Source: Candidatus Omnitrophota bacterium | GTDB lineage: Bacteria; Omnitrophota; Gorgyraeia; Gygaellales; Profunditerraquicolaceae | Length of the DNA: 57,030 bases | Direction of reading: 5' to 3' | NCBI GenBank assembly: GCA_018897555.1 | Contig: JAHIKK010000023.1 | Location: 1-57,030, forward strand | Shown here: piece after piece, positions 2,214 to 47,271 of the stretch | Layout: every line of letters starts with the position of its first letter | How positions within the stretch are numbered: position 1 is the first letter of the stretch | Program-made: the position numbers and the translations under genes | Notes under the pieces: generated by a model | What the model was told of the DNA's origin: nothing | Seen by the model: only the letters and a program-made list of their open reading frames with translations | Databases searched by the model: none

Positions 2214-2317
2214 GTGACCCTGACGGGATTTTCCCGCCAATACTTTAAGTCAGGGCGGGATCCCGCCTGCCTACTTATCCGCAGGACGGGAAAAAGCTCT
2301 TGTCCTGGACCAGGCTA
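2214..2317 (-). pseudogene. tRNA-Glu 3' remnant with 20 internal nt replaced by a double-hairpin element
   Basis: 2292-2317 is identical to 2360-2385 of the intact tRNA; 2215-2231 matches its 3' end with 2 differences (CAGGGTCA vs TGGGGTCA); 2232-2291 is the hairpin element. Confidence 0.85.
2232..2291. repeat. Double-hairpin element TCCCGCC-N15-GGCGGGA-TCCCGCC-N16-GGACGGGA
   Basis: Read directly; same architecture at 2441, 2556, 2897 and 47149. Confidence 0.9.
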
Positions 2318-2322
2318 ATTAT

Positions 2323-2397
2323 TGACCCCAACGGGATTTGAACCCGTGTCGAGAGCTTGAAAAGCTCTTGTCCTGGACCAGGCTAGACGATGGGGTC
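2323..2397 (-). tRNA. tRNA-Glu (TTC)
   Basis: GACCCCATCGTCTAGCCTGGTCCAGGACAAGAGCTTTTCAAGCTCTCGACACGGGTTCAAATCCCGTTGGGGTCA folds as a full cloverleaf; CCA not encoded. Confidence 0.95.
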
Positions 2398-2615
2398 GAT
2401 TTTATTTCTACTAATCTTTTAAAAACACTATGACCAGGCTTCCCGCCCGAACTTTAAACAAGGGCGGGATCCCGCCTCTCCTCTAATAATCTGGCGGGAA
2501 GACGATGGGGTCGATTTTATTTCTACTAATCTTTTAAAAACACTATGACCAGGCTTCCCGCCCGAACTTTAAACAAGGGCGGGATCCCGCCTCTCCTCTA
2601 ATAATCTGGCGGGAA
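2386..2615. repeat. Two identical 115-bp tandem units (tRNA-Glu 5' fragment with double-hairpin insert plus a copy of the nuclease gene 3' end); degenerate partial third copy at 2616-2662
   Basis: 2386-2500 equals 2501-2615 base for base. Confidence 0.93.
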
Positions 2616-2873
2616 GACGATGGGGTCGATCTTTATTTCTAACAATCTTTTAAAAACACTATTGCCTTTAAAACTTTTTAATTTATTTTCTCGTTTACGA
2701 GCTGTGGTCTTATCAGTAAACTGTTCTTGATAAACTACAATGTATGGGCCCTTGTTTTTTGTAGCGATAACGCGATTTTGGTTATGTTGTTTTAATCTTA
2801 TCGCAAGATTGCTAGTACTGCCAATGTAATGCTTGCCATTTTGGTTCTTTAAAACATACACATAATATAACAT
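2598..2873 (-). CDS. Small stand-alone GIY-YIG nuclease (UPF0213/YhbQ-like size)
   Basis: YYVYVL...HYIG motifs, R in LAIRLKQHN, E in ARKRENKLK; 91 aa. Confidence 0.9.
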   Translation of the reverse strand: MLYYVYVLKNQNGKHYIGSTSNLAIRLKQHNQNRVIATKNKGPYIVVYQEQFTDKTTARKRENKLKSFKGNSVFKRLLEIKIDPIVFPPDY

Positions 2874-2888
2874 AATCGCTATCTTACA

Positions 2889-2967
2889 ACCAGGCTTCCC
2901 GCCCTAGCTTTAATTCAAGGCGGGATCCCGCCCACACTAAAATACCCGGCGGGAAGACGACAGGGCC
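2889..2967 (-). pseudogene. tRNA-Glu 5' remnant (GGCCCTGTCGTCT / AGCCTGGT) interrupted by a 58-bp double-hairpin element at 2897-2954
   Basis: Removing 2897-2954 restores GGCCCTGTCGTCTAGCCTGGT; GGCCCTG pairs with CAGGGTC of the 2214-2317 remnant. Confidence 0.85.
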
Positions 2968-2974
2968 TAGAGTC

Positions 2975-5900
2975 TTATTCTTCCTCCTCCGCGATTACCG
3001 GAGCAACACAGGAAACTCGATCTTTATCCTGCAATTTAATTAAACGTACCCCTTGCGATGAACGCCCGGTTTCCCGGATATCTTTAATCGCACAGCGCAA
3101 AAATATGCCGTTTTGAGTAATGACCATCAGCTCATCTTTATCATTTACGGTTTTTAGATTTACTGCCTGGCCGTTTTTATCGGTAACCTTAATATTGATT
3201 ACCCCTTTACCGCCGCGGCTGGTGAGCCGGTATTCATCGATAGTCGTGCGCTTTGCAAAACCCAGCTCGGTTACGGTCAGAATAGTAGAAACTTTTTGCG
3301 GAACCACCATATCAATAACTTCATCTTTTTTGGCCAAAGATATTGCGCGCACCCCGCGCGCACCCCTGCCCATTTGGCGTACTTTTTCTTCAGTAAATCT
3401 TATCGCCTTACCTTGTCGGGTTCCAATAAGCAGCTCTTGTTTTCCATCAGTCATCTCTACGCCAATTAATGCATCATCCTTATCCAGAGTAATACCGATA
3501 ATTCCACCCTTGCGGGGATTACTGTAGGCATCCAGCCTGGTTTTTTTAATTTGCCCCATCTTAGTAACCATCACCAAATACTTATCCGCGGAAAATTCTT
3601 TTACCGGAATGGTTGAACTAACCTTGGCTGACTGCTCCATCTGCACCAGATTAACAATGGCTTTACCTTTAGATATGCGGCTGGCCTGAGGAATTTCATA
3701 AACTTTTAGCCAATGCACCTGCCCTTTATCCGTAAAAATAAGCAGGTAATCTTTAGTAGAGGCCACAAAAAGATGCTCGCTAAAATCTGCTTCTTTTAAT
3801 TCCGCCCCCATCGACCCGCTTCCTCCGCGCTTTTGTTTACGATAAGAACTTACCGGCAAACGTTTAATATAACCACCATGGCTGATAGTGACCACTACAT
3901 CCTCGTCGGCAATTAAATCTTCCACTTCCAGCTCTTCCGCTTCTCCCACGATATCCGTGCGGCGGGAATCCCCGTATTTTTTCATTAACTCCTGCAGCTC
4001 TTCCTTAATAATTGCTTCGATTTTTTTAAGTGAAGCTAAGATCGCCTGGCATAATTCAATCTTCTTGAGCAACTCCGCGTATTCGGCATCTAGTTTATCG
4101 CGCTCCAAAGCCGTAAGCCGCTGCAACTGCATTTCCAAAATAGCCTGCGACTGTAATTCGGAAAGTTCAAACTCCTTCATTAAATTTAGCTTGGCTGCTT
4201 CCACGCTTTTAGAAGTTTTAATGACCTGAATAATCCGGTCAATAAATTTAAGCGCAATTTTTAAGCCTTCCAAAATATGCGCGCGCTTCAAAGCTTTATC
4301 TAATTCAAACTGCGTGCGCCGGCGGATAACTACCCGGCGATGTTCGATAAAACAATCCAATACCTGCCGTAAATTCAAAACTTTTGGCCGGTTATCCACC
4401 AGAGCCAGCATAATAATCCCGAAAGTATTTTCTAATTGCGTGTGCTTAAAAAGCTGATTTAAAACAATCTGAGATTCAATGTCGCGCTTAAGCTCAACCA
4501 CAATACGCATACCTTCTTTATCGGATTCGTCGCGAATATCGGATATGCCTTCGATTTTTTTATCATCGACTAAACCGGCAATGGCCTCAATCAGCCCGGA
4601 CTTCTGCACCTGATAAGGAATCTCGGTAAAAATAATCAGGTCTTTCCCATTCTTCTGGTGCTCCACCGTAGCCTTAGCCCGCACCAAGAGCTTGCCCCGG
4701 CCGGTCAGATACGCATCCTTAATTCCGTTCTTACCGCAAATTAATCCACCGGTGGGAAAATCCGGCCCCTTGATATACCGCATCAGGTCTTTAATTTCTG
4801 CCTCGGGATGATCCAGCAAATACATAATTGCTTCACAAACTTCATTTAAATTATGCGGCGGGATATTGGTGGCCATGCCTACAGCAATACCGCTTGAACC
4901 ATTAACCAAAAGGTTAGGCAGAGTCGCCGGTAAAAGCAACGGCTCTTTTAAAGAAGAATCAAAGTTCGGCCCAAAGTTTACGGTTTCTTTTTCAATATCA
5001 CCTAACATTTCATCACTCACCGCGGCCAGACGAGCCTCGGTATAACGCATGGCTGCGGCGGCGTCACCATCGACGGAATTATGAACAAAAATTCCGCTAG
5101 CTAAAGCGAAATTATGCGTGCCATCAATACTCAAGTCATATACATCTTCTTGTTGGTTTAAAATTTCAACCTTTAGGACTTTATGGTTATAACTTAACTC
5201 TTTATACAGCAAGTCTTCCTGCTTATTATAATATTTTACAAATCCCGTATTCCAGGAAGTTGCTGATCCATAAGGATACGCCTCTTTTCGCGTGCTCTCA
5301 TATAATTCTTCATTTAAATGATGATAATTACTTAAAGTTTCATGGCAAATCTTAACAAACTTTATTTTACCGGTATTATTAGTAATCCTGTTTTTATTAG
5401 CTTTGATTATTTTTTCATTAAAAAGCCTTCTATACTGCGGATCCTGCCATAATCTTTTTAGGGTTCTTGTCGCTCTCTGGCTAAACTCTATTCTTTTTTC
5501 CGGATGATTTTTTATATACTCTTTATTAGTATCACTTAAAAACTGGCGCATTTTCTCCCGATAAAGAGGATCCTGCCAATTCCGGACATTTCTAGCTGAA
5601 AGCCTTGCTGAATATTTTGCTTTATTTTCGGCATTACTCCAAAATTTATCTCTACCTTCTGCTATTTTTTCCCTATATTCTTGGTTTTGGTGCAAAAGTG
5701 AGGCATTTTCATAATGTACCCGCCAATGTTCTCTCCACTCCATTCTTTTAATATTATCCGGATGATTATTAAGCTTATTAAAGTCGATATGGTGCCTTAC
5801 TCTTCCGTCAGATTTTGAATATTTTCCTCGGGTTAAATTATAATTATCGGCCAAATGATGAGCCGGAACCCATTCATTTTTTGCGTTTTGATAAATTAAA

Positions 5901-6580
5901 CAGTACCCATCCCTGTTTAACCTGCCGGTTTTTTCTGATAATTTTTCATACAATGGCATCAAAGATTCACCCGTAGTTAAATCTTTGGCCTCTTTGTAAG
6001 CACCATCTCTTAACATAAACCTGTGATTGGGAGTACATCTAATTTCCGCTCCATTATCCAAAATAACTTTTATAATCTCGGCGTTTCTTGTTGTTAATCT
6101 TGGATTTTTAATCTCCGCGATTGAAATCAGCCCAGAATGATTTATGGTATAAGTATAATTTACCCTTCCTTGCCCTGCCTCTTTTATTAAATCTCCAAAA
6201 TCAAGGTTTCTTCCATCTACAAGCTTAACTTTTGTATCCTTGGTGAAACAACCAAAATTCCCCTGCCCGTCAACTAAGGGGTAGCGCAAAGAAAAATCCT
6301 GCGCCATTCTTACCAGAGTATCATAAATAGCAACATCACCATGGGGGTGATATTTACCCATGGTTTCGCCGACGATGCGGGCGCATTTTTTATAGGGCTT
6401 GGAATGTTCCAGGTTAAGTTCCCGCATGGCGTAAAGAATCCGCCGGTGCACGGGCTTTAAGCCATCGCGAACATCCGGCAGGGCCCGGCCGACAATTACG
6501 CTCATGGCGTAATTTAGATAGGAATCCTTAACTTCATCCTCGATATAAACCTGAATTATTTTTTCGTTACGTGTATACAT
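2975..6580 (-). CDS. gyrA: DNA gyrase subunit A precursor containing an intein (mature about 810 aa)
   Basis: [29 protein letters not shown], GyrA box QKRGGSG, C-terminal propeller repeats. Confidence 0.98.
5078..6250 (-). mobile_element. GyrA intein, 391 aa, with HNH-type endonuclease region
   Basis: GNFG|CFTKDT start, block B CTPNHRF, end [13 protein letters not shown]|SVDG; [16 protein letters not shown] motif. Confidence 0.96.
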
Positions 6581-6665: not shown

Positions 6666-10648
<3,983 letters not shown>

Positions 10649-11934: not shown

Positions 11935-13284
11935 TCATTGTTTAATAACTTTAATAACTTTTTCCACCCGTTCTTTTAATTCCGGATTATTACAAATACT
12001 TTCCTTAATTTTTTTATAAGAGTGTAAAACCGTGGTATGGTCTTTACCGTTAAAAAGTTCCCCAATTTCAGGCAATGACAATTCTGTTAATTCCCTGCTT
12101 AAATACATGGCAATCTGCCGCGGGAACACCACTTGTTTATTGCGCCGTTTAGTTTTTAGATCTTGCAAGGAAATTCCAAACTCTTCGACTACGCAGCGCT
12201 GAATAAAATCTACTGTGATTAGTTTAGTCGGTTCCTTCACCAGGTCTTTGAGTACTTCTTTAGTAAGTTGTAATGTAACCGGGGCCTCTTCCAGTAAAGA
12301 ATAGGCGATCGTCCGGATTAAAGCCCCTTCTAATTCGCGGATATTTGTTTTAATTGATTGCGCAATAAAAAAAATTACCTCATCAGGAACATTAACCGGT
12401 TCGCGCTCAATTTTTTTCTTGAGAATAGCCACCCGGGTTTCCAGATCCGGAGGTTGAATGTCCGTGGCTAATCCCCAACCAAACCGCGAAACCAATCTTT
12501 CTTGTAAATTAGTAATTTCTTTAGGCGGCCGGTCTGAAGAAAATACAATCTGTTTATGAGCGTCATACAGGGTGTTAAAAGTGTGGAAAAATTCTTCCTG
12601 AGTGGATTCTTTACCGGCGATAAAATGGATATCATCAATGACTAAAACATCAAGATTGCGGTATTTTTGGCGAAAAGCCGAAGTGGAACGATGCACAATA
12701 GCATCAATCAGTTCGTTAGTAAATTTCTCGCTGGAAACATAACATATTTTTACTCCCGGGGAGGAGCAGTTTTTAATTTGGTGGCAAATAGCCTGGATAA
12801 GATGTGTTTTACCTAAACCCACCCCACCGTAAATAAATAGGGGGTTATAGGTTTTAGCCGGGGCATTCGCTACTGCCAGTGAATAAGCATGAGCATGCCG
12901 GTTTGCCCCGCCTACCACAAAGTTTTCAAATGTATAACGCGAGTTAAGATTAATGAAACCCGCCCCGGGTAAGCTTTTGATACTGGCTTCAGGCGGAGTA
13001 TTGAGGATAGCGGGATTCCCCGGAGTACTATTGACAACCAATTTTACCAACAGTTTATCCAAACCTTTAAGCTTTAAGGTTTCCTGGATAATTCCTAAGT
13101 AGTGTTTTTCTACCCAGTCTTTAAAAAATTGATCTGGCGCCTCCAGATCTATACTCTGGTTATCTCGAGCAGAGAACTTAAGCGGTACTATCCAGGTAGC
13201 GTAGGTAGTTTCTCCAAGTTTAATCTTTAAATCACTTAGCGCTGCTTCCCAGTTTTTGGCCAACTCCAGCATTGTCACTCCCAA
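11935..13284 (-). CDS. dnaA: Chromosomal replication initiator
   Basis: YNPLFIYGGVGLGKTHL, DDIHF, TNIRELEG, KDHTTV; start may be ATG 13272. Confidence 0.98.
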   Translation of the reverse strand: MGVTMLELAKNWEAALSDLKIKLGETTYATWIVPLKFSARDNQSIDLEAPDQFFKDWVEKHYLGIIQETLKLKGLDKLLVKLVVNSTPGNPAILNTPPEASIKSLPGAGFINLNSRYTFENFVVGGANRHAHAYSLAVANAPAKTYNPLFIYGGVGLGKTHLIQAICHQIKNCSSPGVKICYVSSEKFTNELIDAIVHRSTSAFRQKYRNLDVLVIDDIHFIAGKESTQEEFFHTFNTLYDAHKQIVFSSDRPPKEITNLQERLVSRFGWGLATDIQPPDLETRVAILKKKIEREPVNVPDEVIFFIAQSIKTNIRELEGALIRTIAYSLLEEAPVTLQLTKEVLKDLVKEPTKLITVDFIQRCVVEEFGISLQDLKTKRRNKQVVFPRQIAMYLSRELTELSLPEIGELFNGKDHTTVLHSYKKIKESICNNPELKERVEKVIKVIKQ

Positions 13285-13650
13285 AATTAAATAATCAATC
13301 CTCCAACAACCCCCTCTTATCTTGACGGAGTTTGTTCTATGAGCAGTATATAAATAGACAAAATTGAGTCGGGGATATACCGTGAATCACAGAATTAACA
13401 GTTTATGCACAGCTTGTATAAATCTGTGGATAAAACTCCGAACAGGATTTCCCCAAAAATAATTATTATAACCAAGACAAAAACCTTACCCGCCTTGTTA
13501 GTTACGTCCCTCTAGAATATCATAAGCTATCTAACCGGGCAAGTAAAAAAGATAAACGTCAGTTATTATGCGATAATATTCACAGGCCAACCCGGATAGA
13601 AACAATTAAACCAAAGCAGTATAGCACAGTTTCCCATGAGGTCAATAAAA
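13285..13650. promoter_or_regulatory. oriC part: DnaA-box cluster upstream of dnaA
   Basis: TGTGGATAA 13425-13433, TTATGCACA 13403-13411, ATATTCACA 13576-13584; gene orientation switches here. Confidence 0.75.
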
Positions 13651-13653
13651 AAC

Positions 13654-13682
13654 TTGACCACCATATAAATGTGTGTTACAAT
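13654..13682 (+). promoter_or_regulatory. Sigma70-type promoter of the rpmH operon
   Basis: TTGACC-17-TACAAT with TG extension. Confidence 0.7.
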
Positions 13683-13805
13683 TCACAAAATCAACCCTCT
13701 GACTTTGCTCAGGATTGCTGCATTCGCGGCGCCTTTTATGGGCACCGCCGGATGTATCAAGAAAATCACTGAAAAACCTCAGGGGCAAAAAAGGGAGATC
13801 TGGAA

Positions 13806-13943
13806 ATGAAAAAAAATTTAAAGACGCCATCAAATATTGTGGGCAAGAGGCGCCACGGATTCCGCAGCAAAATGGCTACTAAGTCCGGGCGCAAACTTCT
13901 GGCGCGCCGACGGATGAAGGGAAGAAAAAAGCTTTGCGTTTGA
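13806..13943 (+). CDS. rpmH: 50S ribosomal protein L34 (missing from the ORF track)
   Basis: [45 protein letters not shown]; GGGAG RBS. Confidence 0.93.
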
Positions 13944-14158
13944 CCCCGGTAAACTTAGCGCTTAAACTGATCGCGGTATATCAAAAATATTTAAGCCCAA
14001 GTATTGCGGCAGGTTGCCGTTTCCAGCCGGGTTGTTCCGAGTATACAAAACAGGCAATTTTTAAATACGGATTAATTAAAGGAGTATTTAAGGGGCTAAT
14101 CAGAATATTACACTGTCATCCGTTTTCTGGTAAGTCAGGTTATGACCCCTTGATATAA
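13934..14158 (+). CDS. yidD: Membrane protein insertion efficiency factor
   Basis: [21 protein letters not shown]...GYDP. Confidence 0.93.
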
Positions 14159-34104: not shown

Positions 34105-34266
34105 ATATCCCTGCGGTGCGCGTTGGAAATTTGATAATTGTTGAACCAACACCATATTCACGGGAGCCCCATTATTCTTTATTGCACTTGTGCTTAAAGA
34201 TAGGGCACCCACCTGAAACCAAATCGGTTCAGACTATCAATCCAACGGCACTTTTGCGGGGATTTT
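34105..34266 (+). ncRNA. ssrS: 6S RNA
   Basis: Rod-like pairing ATCCCTGC/GCGGGGAT, GGTGC/GCACT, GTTGGA/TCCAAC, TTGATA/TATCAA; GGGAGCCC, GGGCACCCACCTG...GGTTCA and CAACGGCAC motifs as recalled from B. subtilis 6S-1; TTGATT-17-TATACT promoter at 34048-34076. Confidence 0.85.
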
Positions 34267-45164: not shown

Positions 45165-47030
45165 ATGTTTTTAGAAAAAATAAATTCACCTCTGGATTTA
45201 AAAAAATTAAGTTTAGAGCAGCTTAGTTGCCTTAGCGCGGAGATTCGCCAGAGGCTAATCGAGGTTGTTTCTCAGACCGGCGGGCATTTGGCTTCCAGCC
45301 TGGGGGCTGTCGAGTTAATCGTGGCTTTACATTATTGCCTGGATACACCCAAAGATAAAATTATTTTTGATGTGGGGCATCAGGCTTACGCGCATAAAAT
45401 ATTAACCGGACGCAACCGCAATTTTTCTACACTTAGGCAGTATCAGGGATTAAGCGGTTTTCCTTCAAAAGATGAGTCTGTTTATGATCCCTTTACTTCC
45501 GGCCACAGCTCGAGCGCTGTTTCTTTAGGTTTAGGGCTTGCCTGCGCCAGGGATTTTTTACCTAAAGCGGAGCAATTTAAGGTAGCTTGTGTGATTGGGG
45601 ATGGATCTTTAAGCGGCGGCCTTTGTTTTGAAGGCCTAAACAATACCGGACATTTGAAAAAAGACATTTTAGTGGTTTTAAACACCAATGAATTAAGTAT
45701 CGCTCCGAATGTGGGGGCGATTAGTAATTATTTGAATAAAATTATTTCTTTACCGGTGTATAACCGTTTTCATGATAATGTGGAGAATTTTTTAAAAACC
45801 CGTGTCCCGCGCGGCAGCCGCCTGATAAAACTTATGAATAAGTTTGAAGAAGGATTAAAGGGGCTATTTGTCCCGGGTATGTTGTTCGAAGAACTGGGAT
45901 TCCGCTATTTTGGCCCTATCGATGGGCACGATTTAAGCGCCTTAACTTCTACGCTAAAAAATATTCTGGAGATTAAAGGCCCCCGCCTTTTGCATATCGT
46001 GACCAAAAAAGGCAAGGGTTGCTTGTTTGCTGAAAAAGATCCGGTAAAGTTCCATGGGATCAGCCACTTCGATATCCATACGGGTGAAGTGGTGATTAAG
46101 AAATCTTCACCGGGAGCAAAAAGCTATACGGATATATTTCGTGATAAAATAGCGCAGTTGGCCCAAAGCGATAAGCGGATTGTGGCGATTACTGCCGCCA
46201 TGCCGGAGGGAACAGGTTTGGATAAATTCCGGGATTGTTTCCCGGAAAGATTTTTTGATTGCGGTATTGCCGAAGGCCACGCGGTTTGTTTTGCTGCCGG
46301 GCTGGCCAAACAGGGGTTTAAGCCGGTAGTAGCGATATATTCTACATTCCTGCAGCGCGCCTATGATCAGATTATTCAGGATGTTGCATTACAAGGGTTG
46401 CCGGTAATCTTTGCTATTGACCGGGCGGGAATTGTGGGGGAAGATGGAGTTACCCATCAAGGTATATTTGATATTGCTTATTTAAGGAGCATCCCGAATT
46501 TGGTCATCATGGCTCCCGGGGATGGCCGGGAACTGGAGCAGATGTTAGTGTTTGCTTTGCAGTTAGATAAGCCGGTAGCTATAAGATACCCTCGCGCAGA
46601 GGTTTCTTTGGAGGTGGATCTTGCGCCCCCTTTGAAATTAGGGCAGGGGCAACTAATTACAGAGGGCAAGGATTTCATAGTCATTGCTTTAGGCAGCATG
46701 GTTGGCGAGGCCAAGAAAGCCCTGGAGATATTAAATCAGGAAGGGTTATCCGGTAGTTTAATTAATGCCCGGTTTGTTGCGCCGCTGGATATGGAATTAA
46801 TTAAAAGAGTTTGCGGGGCGAGGAAATTTATTTTTACCATTGAAGAAGGGATAAGGGATGCGGGTTTTGGCAGTGCTGTTGCCGGGCAGTTAAATAAGCC
46901 GGTGGAACGTCTCGGCCTGCCATTTGAATTTATCCCGCATGGCGCCAGAGGGTTGCTTTTGGAAAAATATAAGCTCACCTCTAGCGGGATTGCCGCGCAT
47001 ATTCGCCAGGTGATAAAAAATAATGGCTAA
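45165..47030 (+). CDS. dxs: 1-deoxy-D-xylulose-5-phosphate synthase
   Basis: GGHLASSLG, DVGHQ, GHSSS, IGDGS, GIAEGHA, AYDQ, DRAG. Confidence 0.97.
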   Translation: MFLEKINSPLDLKKLSLEQLSCLSAEIRQRLIEVVSQTGGHLASSLGAVELIVALHYCLDTPKDKIIFDVGHQAYAHKILTGRNRNFSTLRQYQGLSGFPSKDESVYDPFTSGHSSSAVSLGLGLACARDFLPKAEQFKVACVIGDGSLSGGLCFEGLNNTGHLKKDILVVLNTNELSIAPNVGAISNYLNKIISLPVYNRFHDNVENFLKTRVPRGSRLIKLMNKFEEGLKGLFVPGMLFEELGFRYFGPIDGHDLSALTSTLKNILEIKGPRLLHIVTKKGKGCLFAEKDPVKFHGISHFDIHTGEVVIKKSSPGAKSYTDIFRDKIAQLAQSDKRIVAITAAMPEGTGLDKFRDCFPERFFDCGIAEGHAVCFAAGLAKQGFKPVVAIYSTFLQRAYDQIIQDVALQGLPVIFAIDRAGIVGEDGVTHQGIFDIAYLRSIPNLVIMAPGDGRELEQMLVFALQLDKPVAIRYPRAEVSLEVDLAPPLKLGQGQLITEGKDFIVIALGSMVGEAKKALEILNQEGLSGSLINARFVAPLDMELIKRVCGARKFIFTIEEGIRDAGFGSAVAGQLNKPVERLGLPFEFIPHGARGLLLEKYKLTSSGIAAHIRQVIKNNG

Positions 47031-47271
47031 AATTATAATTAATCAGGATAGATGTAAGGGGTGTTTTTTATGCGTAAATTTTTGTCCCAAGGGTTTGATT
47101 AAGAAAAGCGTAAAATTAAATAAACAGGGTTTGAATTTTGCGGAGTTTTCCCGCCGAGGTAACTTAAATAAGGGCGGGATCCCGCCAAAAGCGGGAGATT
47201 TAACAGATTGTATCGGCTGTATGCAGTGTGTGGTAATTTGTCCGGATTGCTGTATTGAGGTAGATAAATAA
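47023..47271 (+). CDS. 2x[4Fe-4S] ferredoxin (delta subunit of 2-oxoacid oxidoreductase) with a 16-aa repeat-derived insert
   Basis: CKGCFLCVNFCP and CIGCMQCVVICP. Confidence 0.92.
   Translation: MAKIIINQDRCKGCFLCVNFCPKGLIKKSVKLNKQGLNFAEFSRRGNLNKGGIPPKAGDLTDCIGCMQCVVICPDCCIEVDK
47149..47196. repeat. In-frame 48-bp TCCCGCC/GGCGGGA double-hairpin element
   Basis: TCCCGCC-N17-GGCGGGATCCCGCC-AAAA-GCGGGA encodes SRRGNLNKGGIPPKAG. Confidence 0.85.

Follow-up and report, generated by a model that had tools for sequence, protein, structure and literature searches.

The window, i.e. the whole stretch of 57,030 nucleotides of contig JAHIKK010000023.1 from a Candidatus Omnitrophota bacterium, contains a tRNA-Glu locus between gyrA and glmS in which a small GIY-YIG nuclease gene and one intact tRNA gene are surrounded by partial tRNA copies, and these copies are split by a GC-rich repeat, the double hairpin (DH). 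We read the DH, which occurs mainly in Candidatus Omnitrophota, as a short palindromic insertion element of DNA that is non-autonomous, and the four copies of this locus as integral parts of a homing-type cassette of nuclease and rescue tRNA, whose tRNA-derived arms they split. We place about as much trust as doubt in this joint reading. It draws on direct observations of the anatomy of the locus, its recurrence across genomes, the insertion sites and the filled and empty alleles of the element, covariation in the hairpins and the fold of the nuclease. An initial annotation of the sequence had described the repeat as a unit resembling a repetitive extragenic palindrome (REP) or a miniature inverted-repeat transposable element (MITE), inserted precisely and without target duplication, and this description agrees with the tRNA junctions and with filled and empty alleles of a ferredoxin gene. 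No published description of hairpin-split tRNA arms around UPF0213-type GIY-YIG genes was found, nor one of an Omnitrophota double-hairpin repeat.

The nuclease–tRNA cassette

All four DHs of the initial annotation were confirmed, at 2232–2291 (copy 1), 2441–2499 (copy 2), 2556–2614 (copy 3) and 2897–2954 (copy 4), and the pieces between them are partial copies of tRNA-Glu on both sides of one intact gene. On the minus strand, the gyrA stop codon comes first, followed by a 7-nt spacer and a piece of the resident tRNA-Glu, its outer 5′ remnant (nt 1–13, GGCCCTGTCGTCT, positions 2955–2967). DH copy 4 is located at tRNA position 13/14, and tRNA nt 14–22 (AGCCTGGTT, 2888–2896) separate it from the nuclease gene. 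The nuclease open reading frame (ORF) as listed extends over 2598–2873, with the conserved protein at about 2631–2873 (81 aa), and continues via tRNA nt 1–13 (GACCCCATCGTCT) into DH copy 3. Between copies 3 and 2 lie tRNA nt 14–22, the last 34 nt of the ORF and tRNA nt 1–13. Copy 2 is likewise located at 13/14 of a partial tRNA copy, and a second unit of tRNA nt 14–22, last 34 nt of the ORF and tRNA nt 1–13 separates it from the intact gene. Tandem Repeats Finder reported this region as an array of 2.4 units of 115 bp (2385–2662, minus strand), each unit containing tRNA nt 1–13, a DH, tRNA nt 14–22 and the last ~34 nt of the GIY-YIG ORF. Copies 2 and 3, which lie in this array, are identical, as the initial annotation had noted for their loops. 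The depth of metagenome contigs over the 115-bp unit was about 4–5 times that of the flanks (runs X1 and X3), so that the true number of units may exceed 2.4 or may differ between cells. The intact tRNA-Glu(UUC) (2323–2397; ARAGORN; Rfam tRNA, 62.8 bits) is part of the cassette. It is followed by ATAATT, by a partial tRNA-Glu identical to the intact gene (nt 14–38 in linear and 14–35 in standard numbering, 2292–2316), by DH copy 1 with junctions at tRNA 35/36 (left) and in the T loop at 56/57 (right), and by an older remnant of the resident tRNA-Glu, comprising the 3′ half of the T loop and the 3′ strand of the acceptor (AAATCCCGTCAGGGTCA, 2215–2231), after which glmS follows.

The outer and inner tRNA pieces represent different alleles. 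The remnant at 2955–2967 differs from the intact tRNA at three positions, all in the acceptor stem, and the remnant at 2215–2231 differs at two. The two outer remnants are complementary to each other with a single G.U pair (GGCCCTG with CAGGGTC) and resemble the intact tRNA-Glu of another genome (locus L014). The intact gene of the window, unlike the outer remnants, has the acceptor stem GACCCCA/TGGGGTC, and the inner fragments are identical to this gene. With one allele outside and the cassette tRNA inside, the pattern is that which an insertion by gene conversion into a resident tRNA-Glu would leave. In a related contig from groundwater run X3, tRNA-Glu has a spacer of ~4 nt and lies 195 nt from the aligned part of gyrA, compared to 768 nt in the window; this distance leaves no room for a cassette and probably represents an empty site. 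The window sequence itself occurs in at least seven groundwater metagenomes.

Three of the DHs are inserted between tRNA nt 13 and 14 (CGTCT^AGCC, minus strand, relative to the intact gene). Copy 1, one arm of which is the non-canonical TCCCGTC/GGACGGGA, is flanked by tRNA nt 14–38 (linear) and by the last 17 nt of the tRNA, with exactly 20 nt absent and no target duplication. The initial annotation had interpreted this copy as a replacement of 20 nt; the missing length was exact, but the copy is best explained by a deletion between one element at 35/36 and another at 56/57, since the undeleted state, with elements at both sites, was found in the downstream (3′) tRNA-Glu arms of four other loci (L129, L136, L139 and L142). 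tRNA sequence had also been correctly recognised as the host of the insertions; the hosts are, however, dispensable partial copies beside one intact gene and not functional genes.

The cassette recurs in other genomes. One genome per species was scanned with the pattern TCCCGCC-N13-18-GGCGGGATCCCGCC, which yielded at least 116 loci. With the window protein as a tblastn query, 10 hits outside the window were obtained in nine of the 116 listed loci. All 10 were located at DH-bearing tRNA loci and eight directly abutted a DH, in agreement with the link to a GIY-YIG gene that the initial annotation had suspected. The same order of arm, DH, GIY-YIG gene and intact tRNA was seen in loci L011, L014, L035, L061, L065, L076, L095, L102, L111 and L117, the last being a close relative of the window: a leader and the 5′ part of a tRNA cut by one or two DHs, a few tRNA nucleotides, the GIY-YIG gene, and a leader with the intact tRNA. 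These pattern-found cassettes involve tRNA-Glu, tRNA-Asp and tRNA-Thr. Locus L076 carries two tandem GIY-YIG genes ahead of tRNA-Thr and tRNA-Tyr.

Metagenomes were scanned with the protein alone, using closer relatives of the nuclease as queries, and at least 80 loci with 87 GIY-YIG matches were obtained. The cassette layout was present in most of the 80 listed loci, with at least 13 tRNA types overall. An intact tRNA on the same strand followed within 150 nt in 42 of the 87 matches, most often tRNA-Glu-UUC (22) or tRNA-Ser-GGA (7), but also tRNAs for Asn, Lys, Gln, Gly, Met, Cys and Pro; a further 22 matches had a tRNA (Arg-ACG, Asn-GUU or Ala-GGC) ending no more than 60 nt upstream. Every tRNA-Glu arm of the listed loci for which upstream sequence was available (21/21) was cut by hairpins with a TCCCG core, at 13/14 and/or 35/36. 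The stem variants of these arms are lineage-specific and compensated (TCCCGCT/AGCGGGA, TCCCGAC/GTCGGGA, TCCCGATGC/GCATCGGGA and TCCCGTTTCC/GGAAAACGGGA). All seven tRNA-Ser arms carried other hairpins, at the D loop and past the second anticodon base. GC-rich hairpins occurred at 3.5 per kb beside the GIY-YIG genes and at 0.97 per kb elsewhere in the same loci, a 3.6-fold difference.

Variants of this arrangement were also observed. In loci L151–L193, with tRNA-Arg (ACG) or tRNA-Asn (GUU), a second configuration consists of an intact tRNA, the nuclease gene and a near-full-length second tRNA copy, with small hairpins (TCCGCCtgcGGCGGA, CCCGCCaagGCGGG or TCCTTC..GAAGGA) in place of the anticodon arm and T loop. 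Five loci (L126, L131, L133, L134 and L138) contain a different element of ~90–120 nt with two long hairpins, starting TCCCGTTCG or CCCCGTTCG; it is located downstream of tRNA-Glu, in 3′ tRNA-Glu fragments, at the same T-loop site (GGTTC^AAATCC). The perfect palindrome CCTGCCTGCCGGCAGGCAGG recurred in arms of tRNA-Lys and tRNA-Asn as well as ahead of a tRNA-Glu cassette (L137, L164, L165, L182 and L183), and represents a separate hairpin family put to the same use.

The nuclease ORF encodes a GIY-YIG catalytic domain alone (Pfam PF01541, E 1.7e-15), a single domain of about 80 aa with no C-terminal DNA-binding module. The predicted catalytic residues Y6, Y16, G18, R26, H30 and E62 are invariant across its relatives. 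A profile search of solved structures returned UPF0213 proteins first (1zg2, E 1.1e-14; 1ywl, E 2.8e-11), then SLX1 (E 1e-5) and then I-TevI, and the AlphaFold model (pLDDT 85) matched the same proteins, with Foldseek TM scores of 0.67–0.68 to the Slx1 nuclease domain. In sequence and fold, the protein is thus nearest to UPF0213 proteins and to the nuclease domain of Slx1. At E≤1e-3 the family has 20,775 cluster representatives, almost all 80–130 aa long. In many family entries, gene callers have extended the ORF upstream through the hairpins, giving N-terminal extensions that contain 'AGS' (AGSR in P0002, AGSL in P0008), and the 3′ end often runs into the tRNA ('DPIV', encoded by GACCCCATCGTC); both extensions are annotation artefacts.

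The double-hairpin element

The element consists of TCCCGCC-loop-GGCGGGA twice in succession and is 48–66 nt long. Its central palindrome GGCGGGATCCCGCC occurs five times in the window, with 0.00 occurrences expected; TCCCGCC-N10-22-GGCGGGA occurs eight times (0.01 expected) and TCCCG-N8-30-CGGGA 12 times (1.0 expected), nine of the 12 within the five elements. The four tRNA-locus copies each fold into a pair of neighbouring hairpins (z −3.8 to −4.7 relative to shuffled sequences). No match to the element was found in Rfam, at gathering or E-value thresholds. Covariation was assessed on elements found via the nuclease protein only, a set whose stems are unbiased beyond the TCCCG core required at extraction. 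In both hairpins, pairs 6 and 7 are variable, with a change on one side matched on the other (CG to AU or UA); 98.4% of the cells were paired, and 38 cells with double changes were counted compared to 10 in shuffles, a number exceeded in none of 500. These compensatory changes support the two-hairpin fold. An alternative pairing of the outer arms with each other and of the inner arms with each other did worse.

CTTTAA is present in the first loop of all four tRNA-locus copies, as the initial annotation had stated. Its loops of fixed length were not upheld: loops range from 12 to 21 nt, and no motif is common to different elements. Within one element, loop 1 matched the reverse complement of loop 2 better than it matched loop 2 directly or shuffled sequences (p 0.002 and 1.5e-6), a signal that is weak without the family with 13-nt loops (p 0.04). 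This relation indicates that the unit is a degenerate inverted dimer of one GC-stemmed hairpin. Extra pairing inside the loops was marginal (2.66 pairs compared to 2.40 in shuffles, p 0.03). Matches of 7 nt between a loop and a tRNA (e.g. in L140) were dismissed, as such matches are expected by chance. A subfamily of 54 nt with 13-nt loops was found in L020, L026, L031, L033, L056, L074, L076 and L083 (bins DeMMO3_36 and 'Uhrbacteria' MEGAHIT-group-0.317). Its loops are conserved between copies (gtcgtaggacttt / aaaagccactgtc), the whole unit is a nearly perfect palindrome, and it behaves like a young, classical MITE.

Exact copies were found in at least 116 loci, nearly all in metagenome-assembled genomes of Candidatus Omnitrophota and in addition in the complete genome of Ca. 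Velamenicoccus archaeovorus. Among the matches listed were also a few bins labelled Planctomycetes or Patescibacteria, and some chance single hairpins in high-GC actinobacteria. In the listed loci the element has three settings: tRNA fragments, the inside of long ORFs, and spacers. In tRNA fragments of the pattern-found loci it occupies 13/14, 35/36 (past the second anticodon base) or 23/24. Among 58 unique copies, 86% had T at −2 and 81% had A at +2. The target approximates TTN^NAA, T-rich on the left and A-rich on the right, and the insertion is precise and without target duplication. The recurrent tRNA sites are three, one in each loop of the cloverleaf (13/14, 35/36 and 56/57), and the three tRNA-Glu sites fit the target (GTCT^AGC, TTTT^CAA and GTTC^AAA). 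Insertion at a single tRNA position, as originally proposed, was therefore right in that fixed tRNA positions recur, but there are three such sites and many TTN^NAA sites outside tRNAs. The biased flanks and the loci linked to GIY-YIG genes also differ from the random junctions, free of any link to tRNAs or GIY-YIG genes, that had been named as the mark of an ordinary REP family. The DH persists only where an interruption is tolerated, i.e. between genes, in frame within genes and in dispensable gene fragments.

A fifth copy in the window (47149–47196, plus strand) is 48 nt long, with a second loop of 3 nt, and encodes SRRGNLNKGGIPPKAG in frame within an OorD/KorD-like ferredoxin ORF (47023–47271, plus strand). 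A protein search with this ferredoxin showed that its closest orthologues (92% identical) have an empty site, GAGTTT|GATTTAA, and that filled and empty alleles differ by exactly 48 nt with no duplication. Other orthologues hold an insert at the same site, visible in the predicted proteins, with internal deletions in P0022, P0044 and P0065 and in decayed form in P0077 and P0090–P0093. Filled and empty alleles, together with common and eroding inserts, argue for a DNA insertion that is old enough to be shared and to erode. All copies within long ORFs, of which there are at least 14, have a length divisible by three (48, 57, 60 or 63 nt); 13 of 14 are read in the same frame, giving F/L-SRx...GGIPP...AG-K/E and adding 16–21 residues to the protein.

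In five orthologous ferredoxin copies, pairwise identity was 0.52 at flanking third codon positions, 0.64 in the loops, 0.91 in the stems and 0.87 at third positions within the stems. The difference between in-stem and flanking third positions indicates that the stem sequence is held, and not merely its pairing; this could reflect selection, homogenisation, or young insertions recurring at a hot spot. Among the fetched loci, all in-gene pairs were filled in both members. Orthologous in-frame copies at the same codon were also observed in L050/L067/L097 and in L080/L105, in genes that are just 60–68% identical as protein; the stems of these copies are intact and the loops carry substitutions and 3-nt indels.

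A proposed homing cassette and its alternatives

In the homing-cassette reading, the mobile unit would consist of the UPF0213/Slx1-like GIY-YIG gene and its own intact tRNA-Glu, with the partial tRNA-Glu copies on both flanks serving as homology arms. The nuclease would cleave uninterrupted tRNA alleles, into which the cassette would home by double-strand-break repair or gene conversion, and the host would keep a working tRNA throughout. The DHs lie in the D, anticodon and T loops and cut the direct repeats formed by arm and tRNA into pieces of 13–25 nt, which are presumably so short that recombination would not readily remove the nuclease gene. The hairpins would in this way stabilise the cassette, and they might also disarm its arms by rendering them useless as a tRNA or as a nuclease target. 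The 115-bp tandem units and the copy joining 35 to 57 are presumably products of later unequal recombination between DH-bearing units.

Several observations weigh against this reading. A protein of ~80 residues without a DNA-binding domain would have to single out one tRNA gene, and it would find a target in the cassette's own intact tRNA as well. DH-cut tRNA fragments were also found beside intact tRNAs with no GIY-YIG gene (L024, L093, L018, L048, L034 and L060). One of these, L060, has the look of a cassette from which the nuclease gene has been lost. L018 and L048 resemble the window in that the part beyond the element has diverged and the part near it matches the intact tRNA exactly. Conservation of the stems at synonymous sites is not predicted for a purely selfish or neutral element, unless the insertions are young and recurrent, and the compensatory changes could have arisen by mutation, via template switching at quasi-palindromes, without selection. 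Hairpins with CCGCC/GGCGG arms occur across phyla, 70 near GIY-YIG genes compared to 10 elsewhere in the 80 listed loci, with their pairing maintained. Any insertion would break the homology, and yet this theme is shared, which hints at a direct role of the hairpin towards a protein or an RNA.

Such a role is central to a partnership like that of REPIN repeats and their REP-associated tyrosine transposase (RAYT), the main alternative, which we consider possible though rather unlikely. The GIY-YIG protein would recognise the DHs, cut at them and spread them, and the hairpins beside the gene would be its cis sites; the loops of the tRNA genes would be attractive because extruded cloverleaf or hairpin DNA is the type of branched substrate used by Slx1-like nucleases. 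The nearest structural relatives of the protein are indeed structure-specific nucleases, and the DH is an inverted dimer in the manner of a REPIN. The gene has DHs on both sides in the window and in L065, just as RAYT genes lie between REPs, and both captured copies of the complete Velamenicoccus genome adjoin GIY-YIG genes. The CCGCC/GGCGG arms common to GIY-adjacent hairpins of different phyla and the stem sequence kept at synonymous sites would likewise be expected of a protein recognition site. However, GIY-YIG enzymes form no covalent DNA intermediate, so that cut-and-paste movement would need ligation by the host, for which there is no precedent. In other cassettes, these positions are taken by different hairpin families (TCCTTC/GAAGGA and CCTGCCTGCCGGCAGGCAGG), and the type of hairpin seems to follow the resident repeat family of the host rather than the lineage of the nuclease, e.g. 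in L076, which uses the 13-nt-loop family of its own genome. A wider form, in which nuclease and GC hairpins make up one system, with the hairpins as cis sites, tRNA genes found by the shape of their DNA, the cassette driven into tRNA genes and the DH family seeded from there throughout the genome, appears unlikely.

The DH might instead be an ordinary REP-like repeat and the tRNA fragments neutral DNA that happens to offer its preferred target, with no functional tie between them. The match of the three tRNA-Glu sites to the general target motif would be explained in this way, as would the DH-cut fragments without a GIY-YIG gene and the dispersal of copies over genes and spacers. Passive accumulation is hard to square with the total occupancy of the arms (21/21 for tRNA-Glu and 7/7 for tRNA-Ser in the listed loci). 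The repetition of the pattern with unrelated hairpin families in other phyla, the 3.6-fold enrichment of hairpins next to GIY-YIG genes within the same loci and the maintenance of pairing by double changes also speak against it, and we regard this explanation as improbable.

A function at the RNA level, as a processing or stability signal separating the nuclease mRNA from the tRNA/gyrA transcript, as a handle on tRNA-derived RNA, or as a segment that is spliced out, is very improbable. The fold is kept by compensatory changes, and most loci have a DH 15–50 nt ahead of the nuclease start. Internal non-Watson–Crick pairs on the sense strand were G.T in 11 cases and A.C in three, a weak hint of sense-strand folding given few counts and imperfect hairpin calls. 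The stems are palindromic, however, so that both strands fold alike; no Rfam match and no conserved loop motif were found, and extra loop pairing was marginal. In-gene copies obey the reading frame and appear in the predicted proteins of orthologues. Splicing was excluded, as the in-silico removal of 138 elements followed by ARAGORN gave no tRNA across any junction, with intact tRNAs located 11–46 nt away. A group I or bulge-helix-bulge intron was likewise rejected for an element of 48–66 nt with no Rfam match, whose borders are the bases of perfect stems; a catalytic core would need some 200 nt or more. RNA runs contained ~5–8% of the words of the window, probably from its tRNA portion.

The initial annotation had also suggested that constant repeats and variable loops might record successive events, in the manner of CRISPR spacers, and to this we give almost no credence: apart from the constant-stem, variable-loop appearance nothing favours it, while the units are scattered singly, some in frame within genes, the loops within one element mirror each other in diverged form, loop length varies (12–21 nt), no cas-like genes were seen beside the copies in the 9 kb that were read, and the whole-element pattern was absent from viral contigs, in which single loop sequences were not searched. 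As no relative of the nuclease was found in viral contigs either, a phage origin was also rejected.

Related systems and significance

In structure, the DH corresponds to the double-hairpin elements (DHEs) of fungal mitochondria. DHEs of Allomyces, Schizosaccharomyces octosporus and S. osmophilus are GC-rich paired stem-loops in structural RNA genes and spacers; they have no flanking duplication and are suspected to be mobile, with no known enzyme (Paquin & Lang 1996 and Paquin, Laforest & Lang 2000, as described in PMC10085805 and PMC2800124). Like them, the Omnitrophota DH is GC-rich in an AT-richer genome, consists of two consecutive stem-loops with conserved stems and variable loops, lacks a flanking duplication, varies in presence between relatives and occurs inside structural RNA genes and spacers. 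For the mitochondrial elements, conserved stems and variable loops were reportedly described by Paquin et al. in 2000. In contrast to DHEs, the DH is bacterial and chromosomal, has one sequence in all four arms, lies in frame in protein genes and is systematically tied to a GIY-YIG gene and partial tRNA copies. Besides the presence or absence in ferredoxin genes, a split tRNA arm can here be compared with an intact tRNA within a single locus.

REPs and REPINs of Proteobacteria are short palindromes arranged as inverted dimers, with many copies per genome, a RAYT gene flanked by repeats and long vertical persistence. The DH shares the short palindrome, the inverted dimer, the many copies, the long vertical persistence and a single protein gene flanked by repeats, but this gene encodes a GIY-YIG protein; no HUH/Y1 transposase was seen adjacent to it, the rest of the window not having been screened for RAYT. 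The DH also lacks a GTAG-type head, occurs inside genes (at least 14 long ORFs) and has a stem sequence that is phylum-wide. The miniature elements of IS200/IS605 (palindrome-associated transposable elements, PATEs) have subterminal hairpins at both ends, with the cleavage sites at some distance from these, and insert next to a short motif (a one-sided target of 4–5 nt) without target duplication. Hairpins at both ends, insertion at a short motif and absence of target duplication are found in the DH too; unlike in PATEs, its ends are the bases of the stems, both flanks are symmetrically constrained (TTN^NAA), both strands fold alike and no TnpA was seen.

Mitochondrial homing ORFs, such as that in atp6 of Allomyces, insert together with a duplicated end of the host gene. 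A free-standing GIY-YIG homing endonuclease, SegB, is encoded in the tRNA gene cluster of phage T4 (PMC2330249). The cassette resembles GIY-YIG homing genes in its catalytic domain, in its location in or beside the presumed target, in a duplicated target segment that keeps the host gene whole and in its presence/absence polymorphism. It differs from I-TevI and the Seg proteins in that the nuclease is a catalytic domain alone, closest to UPF0213 and Slx1, and from free-standing homing genes in that it carries a whole tRNA gene and both arms are split by hairpins. Rickettsia palindromic elements (RPEs) are translated in frame within protein genes and also occur in RNA genes (Ogata et al. 2000; PMC1779305). 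The DH is likewise found in frame in coding genes, where it is translated, and in RNA genes; RPEs are longer (100–150 bp compared to 48–66 nt), are confined to one genus, do not form double hairpins and have no linked nuclease–tRNA cassette.

Other features of the window were recorded. Both gyrA (1201 aa, 2975–6580, minus strand) and gyrB (1232 aa, 6666–10364, minus strand) contain an intein (Pfam Intein_splicing, E 1e-21 and 9e-19, respectively). The two inteins have visibly similar sequence blocks and, with the nuclease cassette, make three selfish insertions in a row. A 6S RNA is encoded at 34105–34266 on the plus strand (Rfam RF00013, 67 bits). The GC skew changes sign at about 12000–14000, with gyrB and gyrA just to the left, and this is probably the region of the replication origin.

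These results provide a context for the uncharacterised family of stand-alone UPF0213-type GIY-YIG proteins (~20,800 cluster representatives), as most of the sampled close relatives of the window nuclease belong to cassettes borne by tRNA genes. The cassettes also affect annotation, leading to pseudo-tRNA fragments, extended nuclease ORFs, protein inserts of 16–21 residues and breaks in short-read assemblies at tRNA loci. To our knowledge, no mobilising enzyme has become known for mitochondrial DHEs and GC clusters in 25 years; this puzzle gains a bacterial counterpart, in which a similar element lies beside a candidate enzyme, including in Ca. Velamenicoccus archaeovorus. If the cassette is stabilised or driven by its arms and hairpins, it would exemplify in nature the coupling of a nuclease to a rescue copy of an essential gene. 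If nuclease and hairpins do form one system, it would represent a structure-guided type of homing and transposition built on a GIY-YIG nuclease, and a drive at essential tRNA genes that cripples the resident copy and brings a rescue copy, in thousands of bacterial lineages.

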